From IMG/VR virus record IMGVR_UViG_2563366831_000002: 13,336 nt of DNA, one strand, 5' to 3'. Shown piece by piece: positions 1 to 9,843 of this stretch (within the stretch, counting starts at the first letter, position 1; each line of letters starts with the position of its first letter). The notes below the pieces were generated by a model, which saw nothing but the letters and a program-made list of their open reading frames with translations, searched no databases and was not told the DNA's origin. The DNA comes from a virus. Lineage: Duplodnaviria > Heunggongvirae > Uroviricota > Caudoviricetes. The translations under genes and the position numbers were made by a program.

Positions 1-117
1 TCATTTGATGATGCCTCTGTGTGAAATGACGGTAAACGACGCACTTGTGCCGGCACATAATAGCAAGCACCATAATAGATCAGATTCGATTCTTGCTGTA
101 AGTGATAATTATTCTCG

Positions 118-150
118 TTTTTCGGGTCCTTTCCGGCGATCCAACAGGCT
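118..150 (+). promoter_or_regulatory. Right genome end upstream of cosN; expected location of cosQ (packaging termination element)
   Basis: Non-coding sequence immediately 5' of the cosN nick closely resembles the remembered lambda right end (...GGTCCTTTCCGG.GATCC.ACAGG.TACG). Exact cosQ boundaries not determinable from sequence alone. Confidence 0.4.
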
Positions 151-170
151 ACGGGGCGGCGACCTCGCGG
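149..170 (+). other. cosN: cosN cohesive-end site; 12-nt 5' overhang GGGCGGCGACCT at 154-165 (nicks after 153 on top strand and after 165 on bottom strand)
   Basis: Exact match to the lambda cohesive-end sequence GGGCGGCGACCT followed by CGCGGGTTTTCGCTATTTATGAAAATTTTCCGG; located about 190 bp upstream of nu1 as in lambda. Confidence 0.9.
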
Positions 171-204
171 GTTTTCGCTATTTATGAAAATTTTCCGGGG
201 AAAA

Positions 205-213
205 TCATGTCGG
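205..213 (+). repeat. cosB repeat copy 1 (TCATGTCGG), candidate R3-like gpNu1 site
   Basis: Exact 9-mer TCATGTCGG; same orientation as copy 3. Confidence 0.5.
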
Positions 214-265
214 TACTTCTCGAACATAACTATTTGTTTTTTCTAATATCGAATCCGTAAAAGGT

Positions 266-274
266 CCGACATGA
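266..274 (-). repeat. cosB repeat copy 2 (CCGACATGA on top strand, reverse complement of TCATGTCGG), candidate R2-like site
   Basis: Exact inverted copy; extended match TTTTCATGTCGG on the minus strand. Confidence 0.5.
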
Positions 275-305
275 AAACGCCTAAAAAAGTCATTTTCGGG
301 CACTT

Positions 306-314
306 TCATGTCGG
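306..314 (+). repeat. cosB repeat copy 3 (TCATGTCGG), candidate R1-like site
   Basis: Exact 9-mer, extended TTTCATGTCGG; 28 bp upstream of nu1 start. Confidence 0.5.
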
Positions 315-341
315 CCCCTGTATTTATTGTGAGACTGTTTC

Positions 342-861
342 ATGAAGGTTAATAAAAAGAAACTTGCCGAAATTTTCAACGTGGATCCGCGAACGATTGA
401 ACGCTGGCAGTCTCAGGGACTCCCTTGCGTCTCCGGAGGTGGTAAGGGCGTTGAATCTGTATTTGATACCGCCATGGCAATTCAGTGGTATGCGCAGAGG
501 GAAGCTGATATCGAAAATGAAAAACTCCGTAAAGAGGTTGTGGATTACAGGGCTGCCAGTGAGGCAGATCTCCAGCCTGGGACTATTGAGTACGAACGCC
601 ATCGACTTACGCGTGCGCAGGCCGACGCACAGGAGCTGAAGAATGCCAGAGACTCCGCAGAGGTGGTGGAAACCGCATTCTGTACTTTCGTGCTGTCACG
701 GATCGCAGGTGAAATTGCCAGTATTCTTGACGGGATCCCTCTCTCGGTACAGCGGCGTTTTCCGGAACTGGAAAACCGACATGTTGATTTCCTGAAACGG
801 GATATCATCAAAGCCATGAACAAAGCAGCCGCGCTGGATGAACTGATACCGGGGTTGCTGA

Positions 862-9102: not shown

Positions 9103-9843
9103 ATGCCTGTACCAAATCCAGTAATGCCGGTGAAAGGGGCCGGGACCACCCTGTGGGTTTATAAGGGGAACGGTGACCCTTATGCAAACCCGCTTTCAGA
9201 CAATGACTGGTCGCGTCTGGCAAAGGTTAAAGACCTGACGCCCGGCGAACTGACCGCTGAGTCCTATGACGACAGTTATCTCGATGATGAAGATGCGGAC
9301 TGGACTGCGACCGGGCAGGGGCAGAAATCTGCCGGAGATACCAGCTTCACGCTGGCGTGGATGCCCGGAGAGCAGGGGCAGCAGGCGCTGCTGGCGTGGT
9401 TTAATGAAGGGGATACCCGTGCCTATAAAATCCGCTTCCCGAACGGCACGGTCGATGTGTTCCGCGGCTGGGTCAGCAGTATCGGTAAGGCGGTGACGGC
9501 GAAGGACGTGATCACCCGCACGGTGAAAGTCACCAACGTAGGACGTCCGTCGATGGCAGAAGATCGCAGCACGGTAACAGCGGCAACCGGTATGACCGTG
9601 ACGCCAGCCAGCGCTTCCGTAGTGAAAGGGAAGAGCACCACGCTGACCGTGGCATTCCAGCCGGAAGGCGCAACCGACAAGAGCTTCCGTGCGGTGTCAG
9701 CGGATAAAACAAAAGCCACCGTGTCGGTCAGTGGTATGACCATCACCGTGAAAGGCGTTGCTGCAGGTAAGGTCAACATTCCGGTTGTATCCGGTAATGG
9801 TGAACTTGCTGCGGTTGCAGAAATTACCGTCACCGCCAGTTAA
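9103..9843 (+). CDS. V: Major tail tube protein gpV, 246 aa, with C-terminal Ig-like (Big_2-type) domain
   Basis: ATG at 9103 after GAGGA; [64 protein letters not shown]... matches lambda gpV; 246 aa. The ORF-track start at 9073 is an upstream extension. Confidence 0.93.

Follow-up and report, generated by a model that had tools for sequence, protein, structure and literature searches.

A probable phage-21-type cosB site with three R boxes beside a natural 21/lambda chimera of the small terminase subunit

The stretch of DNA analysed here (13336 bases, referred to as the window) carries a cos region near its left end, followed by the genes of the small and large terminase subunits, i.e. Nu1/TerS and gpA/TerL, both on the plus strand. 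The leftmost cos element is a cosQ/R4 box, CGGGTCCTTTCC (123-134, plus strand), which lies left of cosN and is identical, via alignment, to the R4 12-mer of phage 21 (record M81255, 136-147); it is a termination element and lies outside the specificity cassette described below. The terminase nicking site cosN (137-183, plus strand) matches M81255 150-196, shows 95-100 % identity to phage 21 as well as to lambda, and includes the 12-base cohesive end GGGCGGCGACCT at 154-165. A putative IHF site I2, TATGAAAATTTTCCG (183-197, plus strand), assigned purely by homology, aligns with I2 of M81255 at 196-210. To the right lie the three repeats that are the subject of this work, then Nu1/TerS (342-887, 181 aa), a full-length match to Pfam Phage_Nu1 (E = 6.5e-90), and the lambda-type gpA/TerL (862-2787, 641 aa), with hits to Pfam GpA_ATPase and GpA_nuclease and ~100 % identity to lambda from 911 on. 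Besides these Pfam hits, matches to the PDB entries 7LWR, 1J9I and 6HN7 identify the pair as the Nu1 and gpA that go with a complex cosB. By analogy, gpA would be the nuclease and ATPase that is positioned on cosN by cosB-bound TerS. Two small ORFs, at 102-260 (plus strand) and 324-602 (minus strand), cross cosN and the R sites or run antisense to Nu1, and have no counterpart in the phage 21 or lambda annotation.

The first ~96 bases of the window (1-96) precede cosQ and have no match in lambda or in the isolated Escherichia phage IdasGreatGrand; lambda-family matches begin at 97-103 and the IdasGreatGrand match at 123. The right-end region upstream of cos is thus another mosaic boundary.

Read directly from the sequence, the 9-mer TCATGTCGG lies at 205-213 (plus strand), 266-274 (minus strand) and 306-314 (plus strand), right of the cohesive end and left of the start codon of Nu1 (342), so that the three exact copies with an inverted middle copy reported by the first-pass annotation are borne out. 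These are the only exact matches on both strands of the 13336-base window, with none outside cosB, which is the restricted distribution that the first-pass view of the motif as a packaging signal presupposed. Dinucleotide-preserving shuffles yielded a mean of 0.10 copies (sd 0.32) and never three or more (0/200), which excludes a chance origin of the repeat. Copies of the 9-mer with one mismatch occur nine times elsewhere in the window, scattered and unclustered.

The repeat is in fact longer than the 9-mer and comprises 16-bp boxes, in which the core (T)CATGTCGG is direct in R3 and R1 and inverted in R2. R3, AATCATGTCGGTACTT (203-218, plus strand, around the 9-mer at 205-213), occupies bp 50-65 counted from the cohesive end, as do R3 of the phage 21 record OL657228 and R3 of lambda, and is the predicted primary TerS binding site. 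R2, TTTCATGTCGGACCTT (reverse complement of 261-276, minus strand, around 266-274), is identical to phage 21 R2 (M81255 273-288) at 16/16 positions. R1, TTTCATGTCGGCCCCT (304-319, plus strand, around 306-314), aligns with phage 21 R1, TTTCATGTCGGGCCTT (M81255 316-331), its first 11 bases being identical. Between R3 and R2 lies a predicted IHF site I1, AAACAAATAGTTA (227-239, minus strand), assigned at the level of sequence match with one mismatch to the IHF consensus WATCAANNNNTTR; its position at bp 74-86 is that of I1 in OL657228. The window thus has R3 at bp 50-65, three R boxes, an inverted R2 and I1 between R3 and R2, i.e. the arrangement of a complex cosB.

When 190-345 was compared by BLAST with deposited phage genomes, phage 21 was returned with 83.8 % identity over 136 bp (E = 2e-32), and so was IdasGreatGrand, whose cosB is 98.7 % identical. 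The sites of phage 21 are annotated in both of its records: M81255 gives R3 at 216-231, I1 at 238-252, R2 at 273-288 and R1 at 316-331, with labels referring to ‘gp1 of terminase’ and IHF, while OL657228 names R3, R2 and R1 as cosB gpNu1 binding sites (initiation of DNA packaging), remarks that R2 is reversed and has an IHF site at bp 74-86. When aligned to phage 21, all three 9-mers of the window fall inside the annotated R3, R2 and R1 boxes. Phage 21 has the same R core, CATGTCGG, in the same +,-,+ orientation, though its own R3 reads CGTGTCGG; accordingly, the R3 boxes (AATCGTGTCGGTACTT in phage 21, AATCATGTCGGTACTT in the window) differ by one base only, at bp 54, where the window has A and phage 21 has G, and phage 21 itself already has A at this position in R2 and R1. 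At bp 56 and bp 59, both R3 boxes have G. I1 lies at the same place in both phages, the recognition helix of TerS is identical, and R2 is unchanged. At ~84 % identity overall, the substitutions between the two cosB regions are concentrated in the spacers, with a further difference in the 3' flank of R1 (GCCTT in phage 21, CCCCT in the window), and the C-terminal two-thirds of TerS as well as TerL are 21-type in phage 21 and lambda-type in the window. The genetics of phage 21 packaging specificity and its sites has been worked out in the Feiss laboratory (PMC4669245, PMC9026076). On this alignment, the three repeats are the long-known R3, R2 and R1 boxes of phage 21 packaging specificity, and as such were already known.

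The spacing of the sites is shared with lambda as well. Counted from the cohesive end, the cores start at 53 (+), 113 (-) and 154 (+) for R3, R2 and R1 in the window, at 53, 112 and 153 in phage 21, and at 53, 114 and 155 for the CGTTTCC cores of lambda. The lambda-like R3/R2/R1 layout proposed in the first-pass annotation was therefore correct in both orientation and spacing, which are those of lambda and phage 21 cosB, and the alignment also agrees with it that the region is not identical to lambda cosB. Its view that the motif is unrelated to the lambda R site did not hold, however, since the 16-bp boxes align in register at bp 50-65 with 9-11 of 16 positions identical; lambda R3, AGGCGTTTCCGTTCTT, shares 11/16 positions with R3 of phage 21 and 10/16 with R3 of the window. 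In fact, lambda (gpNu1, PDB 1J9I) has the same subsite order, spacing, IHF site, protein fold and cosN, with homologous R boxes, and the cos sites of lambda and 21 are treated in the literature as sharing a common ancestor.

Among the differences from lambda are those at the published specificity positions. The lambda core CGTTTCC has T and C at bp 56 and 59, whereas the window core CATGTCGG has G at both, and the lambda helix IRTIQNWQEQG includes Glu24, whereas residue 24 of the window TerS is Ser. CGTTTCC is absent from the 200 bp upstream of the window Nu1, and the Nu1 helix itself is not that of lambda specificity. In packaging, lambda and 21 each favour their own DNA over that of the other by more than 1000-fold (PMC4669245), and published work identifies bp 56 and 59 of R3 as critical for this discrimination (PMC4669245, PMC9026076) and describes a clash between Glu24 of lambda TerS and the GC pair that 21 R3 has at bp 56 (PMC4669245, PMC9026076). 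With G at bp 56 and 59, a 21-type helix without Glu24 and a cosB homologous to that of phage 21, the window carries every published 21-type determinant. Phage N15, by comparison, also has a lambda-like cosN and an R3 at the equivalent position, but its simple cosB has a single R site, no IHF site, and a different R sequence and helix, whereas the three R boxes and I1 of the window set it apart from that simple form.

The protein that would read these sites shows the same dual affinity. Residues 1 to ~65 of the window TerS are of phage 21 type and residues ~70 to 181 are of lambda type (97-99 % identical to lambda), the former being the winged helix-turn-helix DNA-binding domain and the latter the oligomerisation and TerL-binding region. 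Residues 15-27, which include the recognition helix, are identical to those of 21 gp1, Ser24 included, where lambda has SIRTIQNWQEQGM. The solved DNA-binding domain structure of 21 gp1 (residues 1-54) was equated with PDB 7LWR by sequence comparison, a literature text search for this code having found no paper that mentions it; 49/54 of its residues are identical in the window. Of the five differences, A30V, K32G, S34G and I37V lie in or next to the wing (residues 30-37), while R7K lies outside it. Lys35, a proposed minor-groove contact (PMC9026076), is conserved.

Sliding-identity comparison with 21 and lambda shows a 21-like block from ~195 to ~540 and lambda-like sequence from ~560 onwards, placing the right-hand recombination junction, approximately, at 530-560 (plus strand) and the left-hand junction near 195, just right of cosN. 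Across the whole window, the only blocks less than 90 % identical to lambda are this cassette and one stretch of 89 % at 9589-9688, the rest being 96-98 % identical to lambda and lambda relatives; a search for further mosaic segments across the window found none below 89 % identity to lambda. The 89 % stretch lies inside the gene for major tail protein V, and a 3-base deletion relative to lambda was seen at ~7580. The exchanged unit (~195-560) thus consists of exactly cosB and the DNA-binding domain matched to it. The first-pass description of a packaging-specificity variant within a lambda-like module is thus right as to the cassette and its lambda-like head and tail surroundings; the specificity is not a new one, corresponding as it does to that of phage 21 (sites of M81255 and OL657228).

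By its sequence, the window TerS is a natural 21/lambda chimera with the architecture of the laboratory hybrid lambda-21 hy51. Laboratory lambda-21 hybrids such as 21hy51, which combine the cosB and the 5' half of gene 1 from 21 with the 3' half of Nu1, give viable phages of 21 specificity (PMC4669245, PMC9026076); as in the window, cosB and the 5' part of gene 1 come from 21 in them, and lambda supplies the 3' part of Nu1 as well as A. Unlike these laboratory-made constructs, the window chimera is a natural one, has diverged from 21 and is found widely in prophages of E. coli. Indeed, among ~77 complete TerS genes with a 21-type helix on viral contigs, a lambda-type C-terminus follows the 21-type DNA-binding domain in ~60 and a 21-type C-terminus does so in ~17, and the lambda-type chimera is the commoner natural arrangement.

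The correspondence between site and helix holds well beyond the window. Among 81 usable viral-contig loci with a 21-type TerS helix, C[AG]TGTCGG is found at R3 and R1 in 81/81 and also at R2 in 77/81, the remaining 4/81 having a one-base variant at R2. Nu1 homologues that share this N-terminus thus do carry the motif upstream, as the first-pass annotation had anticipated. The variant belongs to one group of four loci (the L113 group), in which the R2 core at the equivalent of 266-274 shows the one-base change GTACGACATG, i.e. CATGTCGT, with R3 and R1 intact, which fits the idea that R2 matters less than R3. As a negative control, a profile search of genome contigs with the alignment of the 21, lambda and window TerS returned lambda-helix loci only. 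In these 32 loci (bacterial genome contigs plus lambda itself) C[AG]TGTCGG is found in 0/32, whereas CGTTTCC is present at one or more of the same offsets in 30/32; in the other two, the Enterobacter loci L027 and L028, there is no exact match to either motif. Many of the control loci (L009-L018, L029-L036, L038-L040) consist of near-identical lambda Nu1 and cos on short or ~48.5 kb contigs from unrelated assemblies, such as Kitasatospora, Chromatium, Paenibacillus, Bradyrhizobium and Limosilactobacillus, and almost certainly represent contamination of the assemblies with lambda control DNA.

Taken over 38 distinct 21-type upstream sequences, the R cores are invariant in 22/24 alignment columns, compared with 62/118 columns in the remaining cosB (Fisher p = 2e-4, counting related sequences and alignment columns as independent). 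Such core invariance is the pattern expected for functional protein-binding sites and suggests apparent purifying selection. The proposal that the repeats are the likely recognition elements of the divergent gpNu1 N-terminal domain is supported by the homology to 21, the identical helix and the co-occurrence of helix and site, all three at the level of sequence.

The cohesive ends behave differently from cosB. At the positions equivalent to 154-165 of the window, loci with the 21-type cosB and helix read GGGCGGAAGGCG (L050, L063 and L093), GGGCGGCAGCGG (L113, L112, L117-L119 and L105) or GGGCGGGAGCGT (L106), so that bases 7-12 of the cohesive end differ, as do the left cosN flanks, and the first six, GGGCGG, are constant. 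This fits published observations that bp 7-12 vary among lambda-like cohesive ends (PMC4669245). Varied ends with the same cosB type indicate that the right half of cosN and cosB assort independently.

This type of cosB is common in E. coli. Its 156-bp stretch is matched in 1214 of the 5426 complete E. coli genomes searched, and at least 95 % identity is reached in 552 of the matching genomes, including O157:H7 EDL933, with one strain at 100 %. Of the 2249 matching places, 2247 are chromosomal. The window may come from a prophage, and a near-identical cos region is present in the isolated phage IdasGreatGrand. The IdasGreatGrand record (PP925829) has no annotated cos features; a ‘hypothetical protein’ CDS (L003 1293-1571) spans its cosN and R3 and is probably spurious, and the start of the large terminase is split off as a small ‘hypothetical protein’ (L003 2213-2356).

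The sites, their register with phage 21, the identical recognition helix, the bounds of the cassette and the association of helix type with site type are direct observations. We take 203-319 to be a phage-21-type cosB, at which a lambda-like cos phage or prophage would initiate packaging and whose R boxes would bind the winged helix-turn-helix of the adjacent TerS, and assign this reading a probability of roughly 93 %. Published work on lambda and 21 describes that the TerS winged helix-turn-helix binds R3, R2 and R1 (PMC9026076, PMC4669245), that IHF bends the DNA by ~180 degrees at I1 such that a dimer of TerS DNA-binding domains docks on R3 and R2 (PMC9026076, PMC4669245), and that cosB-bound TerS anchors TerL for accurate nicking of cosN (PMC9026076, PMC4669245). 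By analogy, TerS binding, IHF bending and discrimination against lambda DNA would be expected here too. IHF would bend I1 (227-239) and thereby bring R3 and R2 opposite one another, a dimer of the TerS DNA-binding domain would dock across the bend, and the lambda-type C-terminal half of TerS would hold the lambda-type gpA over cosN (137-183), where staggered nicks by TerL would produce the 12-base cohesive ends, with packaging proceeding rightwards. cosB and the first ~65 codons of Nu1 move as a single recombinational cassette (~195-560), which would confer 21 specificity on an otherwise lambda virion module. In view of bp 54 of R3, the four wing-area residues, R7K and the ~84 % identity of cosB outside the boxes, that this specificity is identical to that of phage 21 is something we infer.

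Those same differences could be read in another way, namely that the allele specifies a packaging specificity distinct from both lambda and 21, sharing the cosB architecture with 21 and not being interchangeable with it. The 83.8 % identity of cosB, the A that replaces G at bp 54 of R3, the CCCCT flank of R1 in place of GCCTT, and the 5/54 changed residues of the DNA-binding domain, of which four fall within the wing or beside it, would all agree with this. Yet the helix is identical to that of 21, all three 8-bp cores match the R2 and R1 cores of 21, bp 56 and 59 are as in 21, the proposed minor-groove contact Lys35 is retained (PMC9026076), and the change at bp 54 even moves R3 towards the 21 consensus, since R2 and R1 of 21 have A there; we therefore regard a separate specificity as distinctly improbable. 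A weaker form of the idea is also unlikely: the three perfect consensus cores, A at bp 54 of R3, the R1 flank and the four wing-area substitutions might make for a functionally distinct sub-specificity within the 21 type, with a different affinity for, or partial incompatibility with, authentic 21 terminase. If this were true, the repeated joining of the cosB and DNA-binding-domain cassette to TerL-binding domains of either lambda or 21 type would document that packaging specificity is still being shuffled naturally between prophages of E. coli.

Readings that deny the sites a present role in packaging fare worse. Many lambdoid prophages are defective, and the almost exclusively chromosomal location of this cosB type (2247/2249 places) would suit a decayed cos in a defective prophage, in which the sites are recognisable and the module is no longer functional. 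However, all cos subsites are intact, the Nu1 and gpA ORFs are full-length, the R cores appear to be under purifying selection, and a cosB 98.7 % identical is found in IdasGreatGrand, an isolated phage, all of which makes decay very unlikely; even if true, it would leave the identity of the sites unchanged. It is hardly credible that the three copies serve a transcriptional regulator as operators, or that they form a repeat of chance or structural origin with no link to packaging: an inverted R3/R2 pair with an A+T-rich spacer upstream of the first late structural gene does look superficially operator-like, but the shuffles speak against chance, position, orientation and spacing agree within 1-2 bp with the experimentally defined cosB of lambda and 21, the motif type follows the TerS recognition helix over more than 110 loci, and no regulator gene was found associated with the sites.

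The assignment to a phage-21-type cosB brings little new biology, considering that the element, its sites, its protein partner and even the chimeric architecture have already been described. Its use is rather in placing the phage or prophage in the 21 packaging-specificity class, which predicts the helper phages, cosmids and phage-inducible islands that its terminase would and would not be able to package, and the cos subsites could be transferred by homology to IdasGreatGrand, the closest deposited phage genome. Moreover, the window shows clearly, in a natural case, the modular TerS that had first been worked out with lambda-21 hybrids made in the laboratory: the DNA-binding domain and cosB move together and apart from the TerL-binding domain.
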